A DNA stretch of 64,000 nt from positions 2,005-66,004 of the forward strand of contig CACMSB010000006.1 of the NCBI GenBank assembly GCA_902616245.1, in the 5' to 3' direction. The position numbers and the translations under genes are program-made. This document shows positions 1 through 38,732 of the stretch, in pieces (position 1 is the stretch's first letter; each line of letters starts with the position of its first letter). This DNA comes from an uncultured Pelagibacteraceae bacterium (GTDB lineage: Bacteria; Pseudomonadota; Alphaproteobacteria; Pelagibacterales; Pelagibacteraceae). The notes under the pieces are model-generated. The model saw only the letters and a program-made list of their open reading frames with translations. It made no database searches and was not told the DNA's origin.

Positions 1-812
1 ACTCCAAAAGTTTTATTAAAATCAAAAGGTACACCAAAAATATAAAAATTAATTAATGTCGACCAAATTAATTGTGAATATTGAAAATTAGTTACAAAAG
101 ATAAATTTGATAGTTGAATTGCAAGTATAATTAAAAGATGACTGGTAAAACCTAATACACCTAGAAATATTAACCAAATCCATAACTTTTTATTATCAAT
201 AGGTGTCCAGTCTAACATTACATAAATAGAGAAAACAATGGCCCCAACAACAGCAGCATAGAATAACGCCACTAAAGGATCATTATTACCAGAAATAAAT
301 TTTGTAAAAAATTGATATAAAGCCCAACATACTGGTGGTACCAAAGGAAAAATTAAGTCTAAACTTAAGACTTTCATACTAGGACTCATTGAATAAATTA
401 TACACCCGAAGCTTAATAACATTAAAATTATACCTTTAGATGAAAGAATATCTTTTAAAAACAATGCCGTTAAAATTGATACTATTAATGGAGCTGAGAA
501 GAAAACTACATATATATCGACAAGGTCAAATTTTTGTAAAGAATGAATGAAAAAAAAAGTAGCAAAAACCATTAATATAGATCTAATAATATTAATTTTA
601 AAATTGCTTTTTAAGTTTAACTTAGGTTTTAATATCGCGAATAAAATTAAAATAATCACAAAGTGGAAAAAAAATCTGCCCCAAATTACTTGATTTAATG
701 GCATTAATGTTCCCAGATATTTTGCAGTAGAATCTTGGCAAACTAAAATAAAAAATCCAGATATAGATAAAATTATAACTTTGGTAATAGATTTATTTTT
801 AAGAAAATTCAT
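1..812 (-). CDS. DMT/EamA-family inner-membrane permease (3' end runs off the window)
   Basis: Hand-translated, not in the ORF track. ATG at 812 gives MNFLKNKSITKVIILSISGFFILVCQDSTAKYLG...QVIWGRFFFH. The frame is open where spot-checked (FISGNNDPLVALFYAAVVG; TLINFYIFGVP) and hydrophobic throughout. Confidence 0.82.
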   Translation of the reverse strand, partial: MNFLKNKSITKVIILSISGFFILVCQDSTAKYLGTLMPLNQVIWGRFFFHFVIILILFAILKPKLNLKSNFKINIIRSILMVFATFFFIHSLQKFDLVDIYVVFFSAPLIVSILTALFLKDILSSKGIILMLLSFGCIIYSMSPSMKVLSLDLIFPLVPPVCWALYQFFTKFISGNNDPLVALFYAAVVGAIVFSIYVMLDWTPIDNKKLWIWLIFLGVLGFTSHLLIILAIQLSNLSFVTNFQYSQLIWSTLINFYIFGVPFDFNKTFG

Positions 813-827
813 ATTTGTGATTAAATT

Positions 828-1901
828 TTAGACCGAGCTAAGATTATCTAAAATTTTTTTTGAACACTGTTCTGTATTACTAGAGCCTTGTAGATCTTTT
901 GTTCGACTGTCTTTATCTTTAAGAGTTAATTCAATTGATTTTACTATTCTATCAGAAGCTTCTTTTTCACCTAAGTAATCTAACATCATTGCAGCTGACC
1001 AAATTTGACCCACTGGATTAGCTATCCCTTGTCCCGCAATATCTGGTGCCGATCCATGAACGGGTTCAAATAATGATGGGTATTTATTTGTTGGATTAAT
1101 ATTTCCAGATGGTGCAATTCCAATAGTTCCAGTACAAGCTGGTCCTAGATCAGATAGAATATCCCCAAAAAGGTTCGATGCGACTATCACATCAAAGCGT
1201 TCAGGACTTAACACAAATCTAGCAGCTAATATATCGATATGGTATTGATCAGTTTCAACTTCAGGATAATTTTTTTTATTTACATTAAATCTTTCATCCC
1301 AATAAGGCATTGTAATAGATATTCCATTTGATTTTGTGGCACTTGTTAGTTTTTTTCTCTTCCTTATCTTAGCTAATTCAAAAGCAAATTGTTGAACTCT
1401 ATCTATTCCATATTTTGACATTACTGTTTCTTGAATAACAACCTCTCTATCAGTTCCCTGATACATTCTTCCACCGACTGATGAGTATTCTCCTTCAGTA
1501 TTTTCTCTAACAATTATCATGTCGATATCACCCGGTTTTTTATTAGCTAATGGTGCATTTACACCTTCAAAAAGTTTTACAGGTCTTAAGTTAATAAATT
1601 GATCAAACTCTCTTCTAAATTTTAACAACGATCCCCAAAGAGTTATGTGATCTGGATATTTATCTGGCATACCAACCGCACCAAAGAAAATTGCATCGTG
1701 TTTAGTTAATTTATCTTTCCAGTCATCTGGCATCATTTTTCCATGCTTTTCATAATAATCACATGATGCAAAATCATAATCTTCTATATTTAATTTAAAT
1801 TGATGTTGTTGAGAAATTTCTTTTAATATTTTTTGTGCTTCAGGTACAACTTCTTTTCCAATGCCGTCACCAGCAATAGAAGCTATTGAATATTCTTTCA
1901 T
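828..1901 (-). CDS. ttuC: Tartrate / D-malate dehydrogenase (decarboxylating; isocitrate/isopropylmalate dehydrogenase family)
   Basis: Motifs IAGDGIGKEV, TLWGSLLKFRREFDQFINLRP, VASNLFGDILSDLGPACTGTIGIAPS and FEPVHGSAPDIAGQGIANP match the TtuC/DmlA subfamily. Confidence 0.85.
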   Translation of the reverse strand: MKEYSIASIAGDGIGKEVVPEAQKILKEISQQHQFKLNIEDYDFASCDYYEKHGKMMPDDWKDKLTKHDAIFFGAVGMPDKYPDHITLWGSLLKFRREFDQFINLRPVKLFEGVNAPLANKKPGDIDMIIVRENTEGEYSSVGGRMYQGTDREVVIQETVMSKYGIDRVQQFAFELAKIRKRKKLTSATKSNGISITMPYWDERFNVNKKNYPEVETDQYHIDILAARFVLSPERFDVIVASNLFGDILSDLGPACTGTIGIAPSGNINPTNKYPSLFEPVHGSAPDIAGQGIANPVGQIWSAAMMLDYLGEKEASDRIVKSIELTLKDKDSRTKDLQGSSNTEQCSKKILDNLSSV

Positions 1902-2936
1902 TTATTTAGTGAATGTATCGTTAAATTGCTTAGTAACTCTGACAAAAGTTGTGCACTTACTTAATTGTTTTAAAGAGGGTGCGCCAACATATGTACAACT
2001 ACTTCTTACACCACCTAAAATATTTAAAATGGTATCATTAATTTTACCACGGTACTTCACTCTGACTGTTCTTCCTTCGCTACTTCTGTAGTCTGATAGT
2101 CCACCGTAATGTTTATTGTTAGCTGTTTCAGAACTCGATCCATAAAATTCGACATATTTAGAACCATTAGATTTTACTAATTTTCCTTTACCTTCATCAT
2201 GACCTGCAAACATTCCTCCAAGCATAACAAAATCAGCTCCTCCACCAAATGCTTTAGCAACATCACCTGGACATGTACATCCGCCATCTGCAATGATATG
2301 TGCACCTAATCCATGAGCAGCATCAGCGCATTCTATCACTGCACTTAACTGTGGATATCCAACTCCAGTTTGTATTCGTGTTGTACAAACACTACCTGGT
2401 CCAATTCCAACTTTAACAATATCTGCACCTGATAAAATTAATTCTTGAGTCATATCAGCAGTAACAACGTTACCTGCTATGATTGTTTTCGTTGGATATT
2501 TATCTCTAACAGATTTTAGAAATTTACTAAAATGCTCTGAGTAACCATTTGCAACATCAATACAAATAAATTTAATGAAACTAAATTCTTTTAAAACTTT
2601 ATCTAAATTTTGAAAATCTTCTTTTTTTGTTCCAATACTTAAAGCTACATTTGGATATATTGATTTTATTTTTTTAAATTGTTTAATTTTCTTTACATCA
2701 TGTTGTTTTGTTAAACATGTAATCATTCCATAATCAGATAATTTTTCAGCAACACCAAGGACGCCCACACCATCCATGTTAGCTGCCATTATTGGAATTC
2801 CAGACCATTCGTTTTTACTGTATTTAAAACGATAGGTTCTCTTTAAATTAACATCTTTTCTACTTTTAAGAGTGCTTCTTTTAGGTCTAAAAAGTACGTC
2901 GGAATAATCTAGTTTTAGCTCTTCTTCAATTCTCAC
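1902..2936 (-). CDS. guaC: GMP reductase
   Basis: (M)[26 protein letters not shown]-terminus, [22 protein letters not shown] with catalytic Cys, FYGSSS. Start moved to GTG at 2936 to match the family N-terminus. Confidence 0.95.
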
Positions 2937-3058
2937 AAAAATGAAGGTATACATCCAATGAATGATAATTCAATTTAATAATTGACCTTATTAACGTTGT
3001 ATTTGAACAATTTTAAAATTACTGATTGAATTATAAAAATATATATTAAAGTAAATAA

Positions 3059-7762: not shown

Positions 7763-8838
7763 TGAAAATTAATGGTGTTAAATATAAAACAATTTGGTTT
7801 GATGAAGAAAAACAGGTTGTAAAAATAATAGATCAAACAAAGCTTCCACATAAGTTTATAATAAAAGAATTAAATTCAGTTAAAGACGCGATAAATGCTA
7901 TAAAAACAATGGAGGTGAGAGGTGCTCCATTAATCGGAGGTACAGCTGCATTTGGATTGGTTTTAGCTATAAAAGAAAATAACAGTTTAGATTTTATAAA
8001 AAAAAGTTCAGAGGAATTAGTTGCATCTAGACCAACAGCAATAAATCTTCAGTGGGCAGTTCATAGAATGAATAACAAATTGTCATTTGTTGAACCTGGA
8101 GATTTATTTAATGTTGCACTCAATGAAGCTAAAGAAATTTGTAAAGAGGATGAGGGATTTTGTGAAAGTATTGGTAAAAATGGATTAAATATTATTGAAG
8201 ATATATATAATAAAAAGAAAGATACTGTCAATATTCTCACACATTGTAATGCAGGTTGGTTAGCTACAATAGATTGGGGAACAGCAACTTCTCCTATTTA
8301 TCATGCACATAAAAAAGGAATACCTATACATGTTTGGGTAGATGAAACTAGACCAAGAAATCAAGGAGCAAACCTTACATCATATGAACTTAATGAAGAA
8401 GAAATTCCAAATACAATTATAGCAGATAATACAGGTGGAATATTAATGCAAAGAGGACAGGTTGATATGTGTATTGTTGGAACAGATAGAACATTATCTA
8501 ACGGAGATGTGTGCAATAAAATTGGAACCTATTTAAAAGCTCTTGCAGCTCATGATAATAAGGTACCTTTTTACGTAGCTTTACCAAGTTCAACGATAGA
8601 TTGGAATTTAAAAAACGCAAAAAATATTCCTATAGAAGAAAGAGATCCAAAAGAACTTTCTCATGTGGATGGAATTAACAAAGATAATAAAGTGGATAAA
8701 GTTTTAATATATCCCGAAAAAAGCAAATCATTAAATTTAGCCTTTGATGTAACACCTGCTAAATATGTTACTGCATTAATAACAGAAAAGGGAGTTTGTG
8801 ATGCTTCTTCTGAGGGTTTAAAAAAGTTATTTAATTAA
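7762..8838 (+). CDS. mtnA: S-methyl-5-thioribose-1-phosphate isomerase
   Basis: MEVRGAPLIG, SRPTAINL, THCNAGWLAT, ETRPRNQGA, GTDR...NKIGTY, AFDVTPAKYV. Confidence 0.95.
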   Translation: MKINGVKYKTIWFDEEKQVVKIIDQTKLPHKFIIKELNSVKDAINAIKTMEVRGAPLIGGTAAFGLVLAIKENNSLDFIKKSSEELVASRPTAINLQWAVHRMNNKLSFVEPGDLFNVALNEAKEICKEDEGFCESIGKNGLNIIEDIYNKKKDTVNILTHCNAGWLATIDWGTATSPIYHAHKKGIPIHVWVDETRPRNQGANLTSYELNEEEIPNTIIADNTGGILMQRGQVDMCIVGTDRTLSNGDVCNKIGTYLKALAAHDNKVPFYVALPSSTIDWNLKNAKNIPIEERDPKELSHVDGINKDNKVDKVLIYPEKSKSLNLAFDVTPAKYVTALITEKGVCDASSEGLKKLFN

Positions 8839-12897: not shown

Positions 12898-12923
12898 ATG
12901 GGTGGCTATAATTAGCCACCTAT
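12898..12923 (+). promoter_or_regulatory. Intercistronic stem-loop between SBP and permease genes
   Basis: ATGGGTGGCTA-TAAT-TAGCCACCTAT: 11-bp stem with one G:U; ends 3 nt before the permease ATG; no U-tract. Confidence 0.65.
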
Positions 12924-36363: not shown

Positions 36364-37189
36364 TACTCTTTTAGAGATTAATAATATTTATTTTATTTTT
36401 TTAATGATGGCAGCCGCTGTTCCGGTTGGTTTTTTTGCAGGTTTTTTTGGTATCGGAGGAGGATTAATTTCAGTTCCATTTTTATTTTTTGTATTTGAAG
36501 CATTTGACGTTGATAAAGATTATTTAATGCATTTATCTGTAGGGACAGCTTTTTCAATAACAATTCTAACTGCTACAGCATCAGTATTAACTCACAGAAA
36601 ATATAATGCTGTTGATTTTAATATTATTAAAAATTATGGAACATTTGTAATAATTGGAGTTTTCTCTGGAACATTGATGGCGGCATTGATGAATACTAAA
36701 ACATTGTTATTTTTTTTTTCTGCAGTTGTTTACTTTTTTGGAGCTTACTTGTTGTTACAAAGTGAAAAGAAAAAAAAAATTAAAAAAAAATTTAATATTT
36801 TTCCTAGAATAATATTTGGATTTTTGTCAGGATTAATATCTGCTCCTATGGGCATAACAGGTGCTATGATGAATGTTCCTATACTAAGATATTTTGGTTA
36901 TCCAATTAACTTAGCAATAGGAAGCTCTGCAGCCATTGGATTTATAATAGCTTTATTTGGATCAATTGGATTTTTTACATCTGGTTTGATGTTAAAAGCT
37001 GATATCCCACTAAGTATAGGGTTTATTAATATACCTGCGTTTATAATATTTGTTCCAATAACAACATTCATGGCAAGGATCGGAGCAAAAACAGTTCAAG
37101 ACCTAGATAGAGTTAAAACACAGAGATTATTCGGTGTTTTTTTATATGTTATTGGTACTTTATTTTTATATAGATTTTTAGTGACCTAG
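36356..37189 (+). CDS. TauE/SafE-family membrane protein (sulfite exporter-like)
   Basis: GFFAGFFGIGGGLI.VP, SVGTA, AIGSSAA, GA......L...FG; TTG start overlapping the dusA stop. Confidence 0.85.
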   Translation: MNNTLLEINNIYFIFLMMAAAVPVGFFAGFFGIGGGLISVPFLFFVFEAFDVDKDYLMHLSVGTAFSITILTATASVLTHRKYNAVDFNIIKNYGTFVIIGVFSGTLMAALMNTKTLLFFFSAVVYFFGAYLLLQSEKKKKIKKKFNIFPRIIFGFLSGLISAPMGITGAMMNVPILRYFGYPINLAIGSSAAIGFIIALFGSIGFFTSGLMLKADIPLSIGFINIPAFIIFVPITTFMARIGAKTVQDLDRVKTQRLFGVFLYVIGTLFLYRFLVT

Positions 37190-37224
37190 GAGACGAGGTG
37201 GTTTCAGTCTCCCTCCGCCACCTC
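37189..37224. other. GC-rich structured element (two interleaved inverted repeats, pseudoknot geometry); possible ncRNA or cis-element
   Basis: GGAGAC (37189-94) pairs with GTCTCC (37207-12); GAGGTGG (37195-201) pairs with CCACCTC (37218-24). Strongly GC-rich against an AT-rich background. Confidence 0.5.
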
Positions 37225-37277
37225 AGTTACATAATAATCGATTCTCTAATTTTTTCTTAACTCTTTATAGTTGAATT

Positions 37278-38732
37278 TTAAATTTTTTGATCATAATCCC
37301 CAACCTTACCAGTTTGTTGAAGGAGATTATCAATAAAGTCAAAAATCTTCTTTTTTCTATCTTCGGAAGTTGGGCTTTCAGTAACTACAACTAAAGAGGG
37401 TTTATTAGAAGATGCTCTTATTAATCCCCAAGACCCATCATCAAAAGAAAATCTTACTCCATTAACAGTTAATATTTCTCTAATTTCTTGATTATCTACT
37501 TTAGTTTTATTTTCTTTAATATTTGTTATTTCTTTAACTAAATTCTCAACTACATCATATTTTTCACTATCTTTACAATAAGGAGCCATAGTCGGACTTT
37601 GATATGTTGTTGGTAATTCTGCAAGTATTTCACTCATTTTTTTGTTATTTTTATCGAGTAACTTACAGACCTGTATTGCTGAATTAATTCCATCATCATA
37701 GCCATATCCCAAAGGTTTATTAAAAAAGAAATGACCACTTTTTTCAAATCCTGCTAAAGCGTCATCGGTATTTACTTTTCTTTTGATATGAGAATGACCA
37801 GTTTTCCAATAAATTGTTTCACATTTATTCTCATTTAATATTCTGTCATTTGAATAAAGTCCTGTCGATTTTACATCAACAACAAATTTACTATTTTTAT
37901 GAATTTTTGAAAGATTTCTAGCTATTAATAGCCCTATTTTATCTGAAAAGATTTCATTACCTTTATCATCAATAACCCCAACTCTATCTCCATCTCCATC
38001 AAAACCAAATCCAATATCAGCATTATTTTCTTTCACAGCTGATGAAATTGCATGTAACATTTCTAAATCTTCAGGATTTGGATTATATTTTGGAAAAGTC
38101 CAATCAAGGTTGCAATCAAGTTCAATAACCTCACACCCAATACCTCTTAAAATTTCAGGTGCGAATATTCCAGCTGTTCCATTACCACATGCAACAACTG
38201 CTTTAATTTTTTTATTTAATGAGTTTTTTGTTATCAAATCATTTTTATAAATAGCTTGGAAACCATCAATTTTTTTCATATTTCCTTCACCATTAATAAA
38301 ATTTTGATTGAGAGTAATATTTTTTAGTTCTTTCATTTCCTCAGGCGCATGAGTTAATCCTTTTTTGATGCCCATTTTTACACCTGTCCAACCATTTTCA
38401 TTATGACTTGCTGTAACCATTGCAATTGCATCTGAATTTAAATTAAATTGAGCGAAGTAAACCATTGGGGATAAAGATAATCCTATATCCTCGATTTTGC
38501 ACCCAGTTGAAACTAAACCCTCTTTTAATTTTTCTTTGATATGTTCACTGTAAGATCTGTAATCTTGGCCAACTATAATTCTTGGATTGTTTTTCTTTGT
38601 ATGATTAATTATTTGAGTTCCAAGACCTTTACCAAGTTGAACGATTCCATCGTCATCTATGTCTTTTTCGTATACCCATCGTGCGTCATATTCCCGAAAG
38701 CCATAAGGATCAATTTTTCCCGAATTATTCAT
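37278..38732 (-). CDS. Phosphomannomutase/phosphoglucomutase
   Basis: GFREYDAR, phosphoserine loop TASHN, metal loop FDGDGDR, GFEKSGH, LIRASSNKP. Confidence 0.93.
   Translation of the reverse strand: MNNSGKIDPYGFREYDARWVYEKDIDDDGIVQLGKGLGTQIINHTKKNNPRIIVGQDYRSYSEHIKEKLKEGLVSTGCKIEDIGLSLSPMVYFAQFNLNSDAIAMVTASHNENGWTGVKMGIKKGLTHAPEEMKELKNITLNQNFINGEGNMKKIDGFQAIYKNDLITKNSLNKKIKAVVACGNGTAGIFAPEILRGIGCEVIELDCNLDWTFPKYNPNPEDLEMLHAISSAVKENNADIGFGFDGDGDRVGVIDDKGNEIFSDKIGLLIARNLSKIHKNSKFVVDVKSTGLYSNDRILNENKCETIYWKTGHSHIKRKVNTDDALAGFEKSGHFFFNKPLGYGYDDGINSAIQVCKLLDKNNKKMSEILAELPTTYQSPTMAPYCKDSEKYDVVENLVKEITNIKENKTKVDNQEIREILTVNGVRFSFDDGSWGLIRASSNKPSLVVVTESPTSEDRKKKIFDFIDNLLQQTGKVGDYDQKI

Follow-up and report, generated by a model that had tools for sequence, protein, structure and literature searches.

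A conserved RNA hairpin of SAR11 bacteria, apparently undescribed, with homologous copies in pelagiphages

Introduction

RNA hairpins in which the loop is conserved over the stem and is read by a host factor include lambda boxB/nut, HK022 put, the RNase III sites of T7, and the GGA hairpins bound by CsrA (CsrB/RsmZ). These hairpins lie at intercistronic or leader positions in phage transcripts, and RNase III and CsrA sites are also found in host RNAs. In SAR11, the nearest analogue of the hairpin discussed here is the "rhtB-associated element" of Candidatus Pelagibacter ubique (PMC2704228), likewise one SAR11-specific hairpin whose loop and bulge are well conserved and whose stem covaries. Here, we describe an element located between the convergent genes for tauE and a phosphoglucomutase/phosphomannomutase (PMM) in a 64,000-nucleotide stretch (the window) of contig CACMSB010000006.1 from an uncultured Pelagibacteraceae bacterium. 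The element is the SAR11 copy of a strongly conserved RNA hairpin that is apparently undescribed and is also carried by Pelagibacter phages.

About half of the copies of the rhtB-associated element are followed by U6-9, and no function has been assigned to it, as is the case with the present hairpin. In its alignment (Additional file 8 of PMC2704228), a -10-like TATATT precedes the hairpin by ~7 nt and U9 follows it, which is the same promoter-hairpin-U-run layout as that found here. The two differ in sequence, which is unrelated (GAUAGUCCUU...AAGGACUAUC in the rhtB-associated element), in the loop of the rhtB-associated element, which is longer and differently structured, and in phage copies, none of which have been reported for it. 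SAR11 may have a small class of promoter-hairpin-terminator mini-genes, with the present element as a new member that has phage homologues.

The Pelagibacter structured-RNA survey of Meyer (2009) screened only intergenic regions of >100 bp (PMC2704228); the intergenic region here is 88 bp. Comparison with the published SAR11 intergenic motifs gave no counterpart, as the string GGGAGAC is absent from all 12 supplementary alignments of that survey. Across the whole window, only tRNA passes the gathering threshold in Rfam 15, and the best match in 36900-37500 at E up to 10 scores 17.6 bits against thresholds of 47-80. The original prediction, made from the sequence of the window alone, had recognized no riboswitch, SRP, 6S, or tmRNA pattern at this place, and this is borne out: no Rfam 15 family reaches its gathering threshold at the element. 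Rfam gave no matches at 13 host and phage loci either, and ARAGORN found no tRNA or tmRNA at the element. The motif string was without a match in the searchable literature, which also contained nothing relevant on pelagiphage stem-loops or terminators. A homologous hairpin module of SAR11 and its phages has apparently not been described previously.

Other known systems share some properties with the element. It resembles intrinsic terminators in its GC-rich stem-loop, in the U-run found in many SAR11 clades, and in the GNRA-type tetraloop that would stabilize it; it departs from them in its 11-nt near-invariant apex and a putative promoter of its own directly upstream, and the window and phage copies have no U-run. 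GGA, which CsrA binds in hairpins that usually come in many copies, is invariant in the apex of what is here a single hairpin. At its length, the helix falls short of a classical RNase III substrate. To our knowledge, the sequence matches none of the boxB, put, RNase III, or CsrA consensus sites. Cyanobacterial Yfr1, a very short sRNA with an ultraconserved exposed motif, is, like the RNA predicted here, a small transcript of a streamlined marine bacterium, with a conserved motif on a stem-loop and an independent promoter. However, the present element would be shorter still (a single hairpin of ~40 nt), and, unlike a single-stranded anti-Shine-Dalgarno seed, its conserved block consists largely of purines and probably adopts a structure. 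Resemblances to ops (GGCGGTAG), the T7 +1 GGGAGA, the S15 G.U/G-C motif, hammerhead domain 2, and the 16S 3' end were also considered; each fits some variants only or is tentative.

Conservation and Fold of the Hairpin

The window has a GC content of 30%, and its nearest relatives are Pelagibacteraceae (SAR11) single-cell genomes with a protein identity of 98%. The hairpin occupies 37195-37225 on the minus strand, with the 5' arm GAGGUGG at 37224-37218, the 3' arm CCACCUC at 37201-37195, and an optional U.G pair (37225-37194). Its stem of 7 bp, five of them G-C, has a folding energy of -12.4 kcal/mol (z = -2.6). The 16-nt "loop" is itself predicted to fold into a 4x4 purine-rich internal loop, a G.U/G-C step (37213-37206 and 37212-37207), and a GAGA (GNRA) tetraloop at 37211-37208. 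The near-invariant apical block GGGAGACUGAA spans 37203-37213. RNAfold gives the same architecture for the window copy, a copy from another SAR11 clade, and three phage copies.

Among 80 SAR11 loci gathered via the PMM protein, the core of the element is present in 61, as a single copy each and on the PMM strand every time. The hairpin is kept with or without tauE as a neighbor, at distances to PMM from 60 nt to more than 2 kb, and remains co-oriented with PMM even across 0.3-5.6 kb of variable genes. Its stem differs between SAR11 clades, with GAGGTGA/TCACCTC, GGGTGG/CCACCC, and AAGGGTGG/CCACCCTT among the variants. In an alignment of 52 sequences, the stem is 99% paired and five of its seven pairs show double compensatory changes, and the covariation score was matched by none of 500 shuffles. 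Covariation among homologues, for which the original prediction had looked to future comparison, is thus found, in this helix (helix B below) only.

The 115 distinct hairpins contain 39 distinct 7-bp stems; the consensus of the motif is 5'-GGYGR-YN-(G/U/A)(A/C)-GG-GAGA-CU-GAA-R-YCRCC-3', with a GC-rich stem of 7-9 bp. The GAGA tetraloop and its closing pair G18-C23 are invariant in this set. The changes that do occur in the apex keep pairing: G17 to A gives A-U with U24, A16 to C gives C-G with G25, and G25 to U gives A-U with A16. The internal loop is more variable on its 5' side than on its 3' side. The scans were seeded on the apex, and the counts derived from them refer to the matches listed (up to 120). 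As a check on ascertainment bias, scans were run with either half of the loop left free, and the same apical block was returned again.

The covariance model R1 scores 56.7 bits on the minus strand, as a single copy in the 64 kb, versus 14.5 bits on the plus strand. A plus-strand reading was rejected on this difference and because that strand has no terminator or promoter logic. A strand test based on G.U versus A.C pairs is not decisive in the outer stem (17 vs. 18), and the inner positions mildly favor the minus strand. The functional strand is the minus strand, and only helix B matters. A search of the window for a complementary or second motif match (two mismatches or fewer, either sense) found none.

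The Second Helix and the tauE Stop Codon

The element had originally been described as a GC-rich element of pseudoknot geometry. In plus-strand letters, the perfect repeats of arm A are GGAGAC (37189-37194) and GTCTCC (37207-37212), and those of arm B are GAGGTGG (37195-37201) and CCACCTC (37218-37224). The interleaved A-B-A'-B' order, with helices of 6 bp (A) and 7 bp (B), is as first reported. So are the AT-rich surroundings: the GC content of the 36-mer is 64%, which places it among the top GC peaks of the window, level with a tRNA-Met gene. Interleaved perfect repeats of at least 6 nt are commonplace (43 in the window vs. ~50 in Markov resamples), whereas a GC-rich interleaved pair occurs once in the window and in none of 30 resamples. 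GC-rich perfect hairpins number two in the 64 kb, including the element. The other, GGTGGCTA-taat-TAGCCACC at 12901-12920, lies just past a stop codon and has no T-run. Its stem resembles the GGUGG arm of the element, its loop is unrelated, and it scores 13.8 bits with the covariance model.

The tauE gene (sulfite exporter TauE/SafE family, PF01925; 36356-37189, plus strand) is convergent to the hairpin, and its stop codon adjoins the hairpin tail. The last base of the stop TAG (37187-37189) is also the first base of GGAGAC. An H-type pseudoknot starting from this stop codon could act as a conformational switch or a readthrough signal, and both helices are indeed perfect in the window, in a GC-rich pair that is not found here by chance. 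We regard this reading as largely refuted and highly improbable. Read on the minus strand, arm A is the tail GUCUCC (37189-37194), which is able to pair with the GGAGAC of the loop. This tail is limited to the clade of the window, is eroded in two of its members (L010 and L024), and is replaced by unrelated sequence in the phage copies. Helix A/A' is paired in 60% of alignment cells, mostly through G.U pairs against U-runs, and shows zero double changes. In 118 distinct host sequences, loop-tail pairing averages 5.3, compared with 4.8 for shuffled tails (2.64 vs. 2.57 for Watson-Crick pairs only). Because A/A' shows no covariation and pairs no better than shuffled tails, the pseudoknot is an unconserved peculiarity of the window's clade. 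The model score of the plus strand is low, as given above. A junction of zero nucleotides between two helices is sterically awkward for a coaxially stacked pseudoknot, and arm A and the 5' arm of the hairpin are separated by zero nucleotides.

Readthrough of tauE, which would append the extension ETRWFQSPSATSVT, fares no better. The hairpin is also conserved beside DUF2061, an NlpC/P60-like gene, and tRNA-Ser, and in phages; its conservation at loci that lack tauE rules out a readthrough signal for that gene. What was originally observed is real, but the strand was the wrong one and one of the two helices is surplus. The idea that the window copy is a tRNA fragment or attachment site was also rejected: its likeness to a tRNA 3' end consists of TCCGCCA alone and is seen in this clade only.

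The U-Run and the Terminator Question

In most other clades, a run of 5-9 U directly follows the hairpin on the PMM strand, which is the layout of an intrinsic terminator. At least six U in eight positions are found after the hairpin in 49 of the 118 distinct host versions, compared with 0 of 65 phage tails, and on the minus strand only. In the window, no U- or T-run lies beside the element on either strand. The first description of the element as something other than a standard terminator stands for the clade of the window; it does not extend to the 49 host versions with a U-run.

A plain intrinsic and possibly bidirectional terminator, or a 3'-end stabilizer for the PMM and tauE mRNAs without sequence-specific function, has to be considered. 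Apart from the U-runs, it is supported by the rarity of GC-rich hairpins in this AT-rich genome, the common position between convergent genes, and PMM-side metatranscriptome contigs that pass through the hairpin and stop at 37169-37181. One phage copy also follows a capsid gene (see below), and T7 carries its T-phi terminator in that slot. However, thermodynamic stability does not call for an 11-nt near-invariant apex that hosts and three phage lineages have in common on freely varying stems. A conserved promoter-like block would fire into the hairpin from 5-9 nt upstream, and the module persists kilobases away from PMM and at a different locus. Moreover, the window's clade, the GGGUGG clades, and essentially all phage copies have no U-run. 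We consider this explanation improbable.

In the clades with a GGGUGG stem (e.g., L263, L266, L284, L293, L310, and L367), where the U-run is missing, the next 10-12 nt are C-rich (CNACC..). Examples are CCAACCUC, CGACCCCUUUCC, and CGACCCCCCCCC, in genomes below 30% GC. Overall, the tails are 78% pyrimidine in hosts vs. 38% in phages. The C-rich tail might serve to load Rho, provide an alternative 3' arm, or belong to the end of the convergent gene.

A Conserved Promoter-like Block and a Proposed Autonomous Module

A set of 159 distinct host sequences was anchored on the region upstream of the hairpin. All 159 contain GAATC, which is also present at a non-PMM locus, and all have the TA of a -10 box three bases past it; the T at the sixth position is found in 68%. 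A spacer of 18 nt separates the -10 box from a TT(C/A)A.. -35 element, and a TTCAAY block is located near -50. The module is thus laid out as TTCAAY...TT(C/A)A..-18 nt-, with an invariant GAATC-N3-TAnnnT, and the hairpin follows the -10 box at a distance of 5-9 nt. In the window, all on the minus strand, these are TTCAAC at 37270-37275 (possibly an UP element or activator site), the -35 box TTAAGA at 37255-37260 (TTCATA in other clades), GAATC at 37240-37244, and the -10 box TATTAT at 37231-37236. The minus-strand promoter TTAAGA...TATTAT had been proposed from the window alone; it is present, and its conservation lends it support. Judged by these sequences, a conserved sigma-70-like promoter appears to precede the hairpin on the minus strand.

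GAATC is a GANTC site, the CcrM methylation motif, or alternatively a regulator contact. A CcrM-like methylase, babIM, is listed in HTCC1062 (PMC2704228). The promoter might be controlled by methylation or by the cell cycle via GAATC.

The PMM gene (37278-38732, minus strand) lies upstream on the same strand as the hairpin, and its stop is 4 nt ahead of the TTCAAC block. In a random sample of 120 marine metagenome contigs with the motif, 91 show the PMM/tauE/DUF2061 locus, 4 are phage, and 25 are others. Several of the 25 belong to a second low-GC locus with lepA, tRNA-Ser, the promoter blocks and hairpin, a convergent NlpC/P60-like gene, ampG, and trkH. The module is also found downstream of divergent inserted genes. 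Because promoter and hairpin stay intact while the neighbors change, the module would be an autonomous gene. A role restricted to the PMM 3' UTR was rejected, since the module persists where 0.3-5.6 kb separate it from PMM and also occurs at a second locus.

The gap between PMM and the module ranges from 4 nt to 5.6 kb of differing genes (L027, L035, L036, L039, L040, L058, L059, L266, and others). The far side is variable as well, with DUF2061, tauE, or small convergent open reading frames, so that the region looks like the border of a flexible genomic island. In other clades, tauE lies 20-1800 nt from the hairpin or is absent.

A gene for a DUF2061 membrane protein (66-70 aa) follows the hairpin on the same strand after 9-60 nt in 13 of the 61 genome loci and in approximately 10 of the 91 metagenome loci. 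No Shine-Dalgarno sequence precedes these genes, and in L337 and L282 the AUG directly follows a U9 run. DUF2061 is absent from the 64-kb window, and in the majority of host loci, including the window, the next gene is convergent.

Copies in Pelagibacter Phages

An apex scan of IMG/VR gave 71 matches, ~55 of them on low-GC contigs (31-38%), in which the apex sits on differing GC-rich stems: GGGCGG/CCGCCC, GAGGCGA/UCGCCUC, AGUGGCGG/CCGCCGCU, AAGGGGG/CCCCCUU, and GAGGACGG/CCGUCCUC. A BLAST search with eight stem variants against 50,697 phage records matched eight records of Pelagibacter phages, one of them a duplicate, plus an uncultured Mediterranean fosmid; no phage of another named host was matched among these records. 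The phage copies span at least three Pelagibacter phage lineages. Pelagibacter phage HTVC031P has one copy (53.5 bits), between the genes for the capsid and tail tubular protein A, HTVC019P has one (35.7 bits), between the lysozyme and primase genes, and Jormungand has one (39.5 bits) and no tRNA. A 21-mer upstream of the HTVC031P copy was considered as a repeated phage promoter and rejected, as it occurs once in that genome.

A large group of uncultured contigs carries the hairpin between the genes for a phrog_2402 protein and a primase (phrog_21866). HTVC010P has no motif, and the primase-associated contigs therefore represent a different podovirus-like group. Further viral copies follow an Hsp20 gene, precede a gp33-like late-transcription regulator, or are located ahead of a small gene that is itself followed by a likely large terminase (identified by eye). 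Wherever the phage surroundings were inspected, the hairpin is sense-oriented between genes, 7-50 nt ahead of the next start codon, and several of the genes that follow have no Shine-Dalgarno sequence in between.

Many primase-type contigs carry a second small hairpin 1-8 nt upstream of the conserved one (UUUCUC-GUAA-GAGAAA at 3866-3881 in L155). It has covarying variants (UUCCUG-UG-CAGGA(C) and UUUCCA-UCCGG-UGGAAA), which makes a tandem two-hairpin unit before the primase gene. The viral hairpin CTAGGTGATGGAGGGAGACTGAAGTCACCTAG (L088, L118, and L120) has 28 consecutive bases identical to a host version (L036-type SAR11 loci). It is the sole case in which phage and host share the same stem and apex. 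In HTVC019P (L153), a complete tRNA-Cys(GCA) lies at 8566-8639 on the minus strand, opposite to all phage genes, and its 3' end is one base from the hairpin. This tRNA-Cys is probably the phage attachment site.

The position of the hairpin in phages and beside DUF2061 would suit a cis-acting 5' leader, such as an attenuator, a terminator-embedded sensor, or a translation-initiation hairpin for the downstream gene. It would act on DUF2061 in SAR11, in what would be the ancestral arrangement, and on primase, tail-tube, and other genes in phages, and the window copy would be a relic retained or repurposed after the loss of DUF2061. Short distances to start codons, together with the missing Shine-Dalgarno sequences and the AUG next to U9 described above, agree with this, as does a Shine-Dalgarno-like GGGAG/GGAGG inside the apex. 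In one metatranscriptome, the DUF2061 side including the hairpin is also covered far more deeply than the PMM side (see below). Yet in the window and most host loci the next gene (tauE or NlpC/P60-like) is convergent, and promoter and hairpin are perfectly conserved all the same. A start at the hairpin base would leave no upstream sequence for an antiterminator fold, the functionally unrelated downstream genes argue against a metabolite riboswitch, and the HTVC031P position right after the capsid gene suits a 3' role equally. A leader function suits a minority of the contexts, and we consider it unlikely.

If the element worked at the DNA level, it would mark the edge of the flexible island as a site of recombination or attachment, or would prime replication as a single-stranded DNA hairpin. 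The highly variable gene content on both sides of the module fits such a role, as do the hairpin abutting the opposite-strand tRNA-Cys in HTVC019P and the 28 bases that viral contig type L088 has in common with a host version; the many viral copies just upstream of a primase gene fit a DNA site as well. On the other hand, phage and host stems differ, which leaves no common recombination core beyond the apex, and there is one copy per locus with no flanking duplicate. The orientation is always co-directional with transcription, and the U-run and promoter are RNA-level signals. The 16-nt spacer between the arms is atypical of the core sites of tyrosine recombinases. Such a site is very unlikely.

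Metatranscriptome Data

The expression data are unstranded Logan assemblies of metatranscriptomes, and standard libraries lose RNAs of ~40 nt. The element is covered about as deeply as its flanks. A 20-fold depth peak in run X29 can be explained by the many genotypes that map to the conserved core. L337 is a better-represented genotype, for which four contigs have an end precisely at the first base of the stem, and in one run the side with the hairpin and DUF2061 has a depth of 17.5, compared with 0-3 on the PMM side. These data are compatible with a promoter ahead of the hairpin and are not proof of one. The transcription start site tables of the Red Sea mdRNA-seq paper gave no usable HTCC7211 entry.

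Elsewhere in the window, contig depth rises to 260-3000 at 36737-36810, over a lysine-rich, A-rich stretch of tauE (SEKKKKIKKKF) with loose poly-T/poly-A ends. This almost certainly reflects cross-mapped low-complexity reads and not expression.

A Putative Recognition Hairpin

We give a slightly better than even chance to the reading that the element is a copy of an undescribed SAR11 hairpin RNA motif on the minus strand, a putative autonomous mini-gene with an apex read by a host factor that the phages share. The primary transcript of the host module would start at the hairpin base, at approximately 37224-37226. A small noncoding RNA from the minus strand with this start, antisense into the tauE 3' end, had been proposed originally and appears to be the best reading of the sequence. 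In most clades, the transcript would stop at the U-run that adjoins the hairpin and would thus be ~40 nt long. The window's clade has no U-run, and there some transcription would probably run on into the tauE 3' end.

The stems vary freely and the apex does not, so the apex must be read sequence-specifically. Because several unrelated phage lineages carry the hairpin, the reader is most simply a host component. The invariant GNRA-capped apex would be the recognition site for a putative SAR11 cellular factor, most likely a protein. A ribosomal or other RNA partner is less likely. The host RNA would titrate the factor or be acted on by it, and phage mRNAs would carry the hairpin to recruit or evade the factor in the processing, stabilization, or translation of flanking genes. 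We would guess that the hairpin is recognized by a SAR11 factor and that phages exploit this factor. A bolder form of this proposal is that a single-hairpin RNA of ~40 nt, made from a dedicated and possibly methylation-sensitive (GANTC) promoter, competes for the host factor with the hairpins in the mRNAs of three pelagiphage lineages. This form we put forward only tentatively.

Several points weigh against the recognition-hairpin reading. The RNA ends are deduced from sequence, and the public metatranscriptomes are unstranded assemblies. Once cross-genotype mapping is allowed for, the depth of the element is not clearly above that of its flanks. PMM-side contigs run through the hairpin and end at 37169 and 37181 (one other at 37237), and the hairpin may also serve as the 3' end of PMM. 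The contigs that end at the first stem base do so just where the conserved block has its edge, and their ends may only reflect branching of the assembly graph. The start of DUF2061 9-60 nt downstream in 10-20% of host loci fits a leader. Finally, the invariance of the stem columns G8, G9, and G11 and their partners is partly imposed, because later search patterns fixed these columns; in the first scan, which was seeded on the loop alone, they were 98-100% conserved.

Significance

SAR11 is the most abundant bacterial clade of the surface ocean, with a streamlined genome and very few known regulators, and we know of no characterized small RNA in it. That the module is near-universal and single-copy, with an invariant promoter and hairpin apex, implies that it is under strong selection for a function. 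The same hairpin is found in intercistronic regions of T7-like pelagiphages, in podovirus-like primase contigs, and contigs with T4-like marker genes, a spread that points to shared host machinery on which the phages depend or which they subvert. The hairpin could serve as a host-specific marker to assign uncultured viral contigs to SAR11, and an RNA of 30-40 nt is a concrete bait for an RNA-binding factor in an organism without genetic tools. If the competition for a host factor were real, the host RNA would be a minimal protein-sequestering RNA that is mimicked by phages to commandeer the factor, or a host decoy that blunts the hijack. It would then represent a new axis of host-virus RNA mimicry between the most abundant bacterium of the ocean and its phages.

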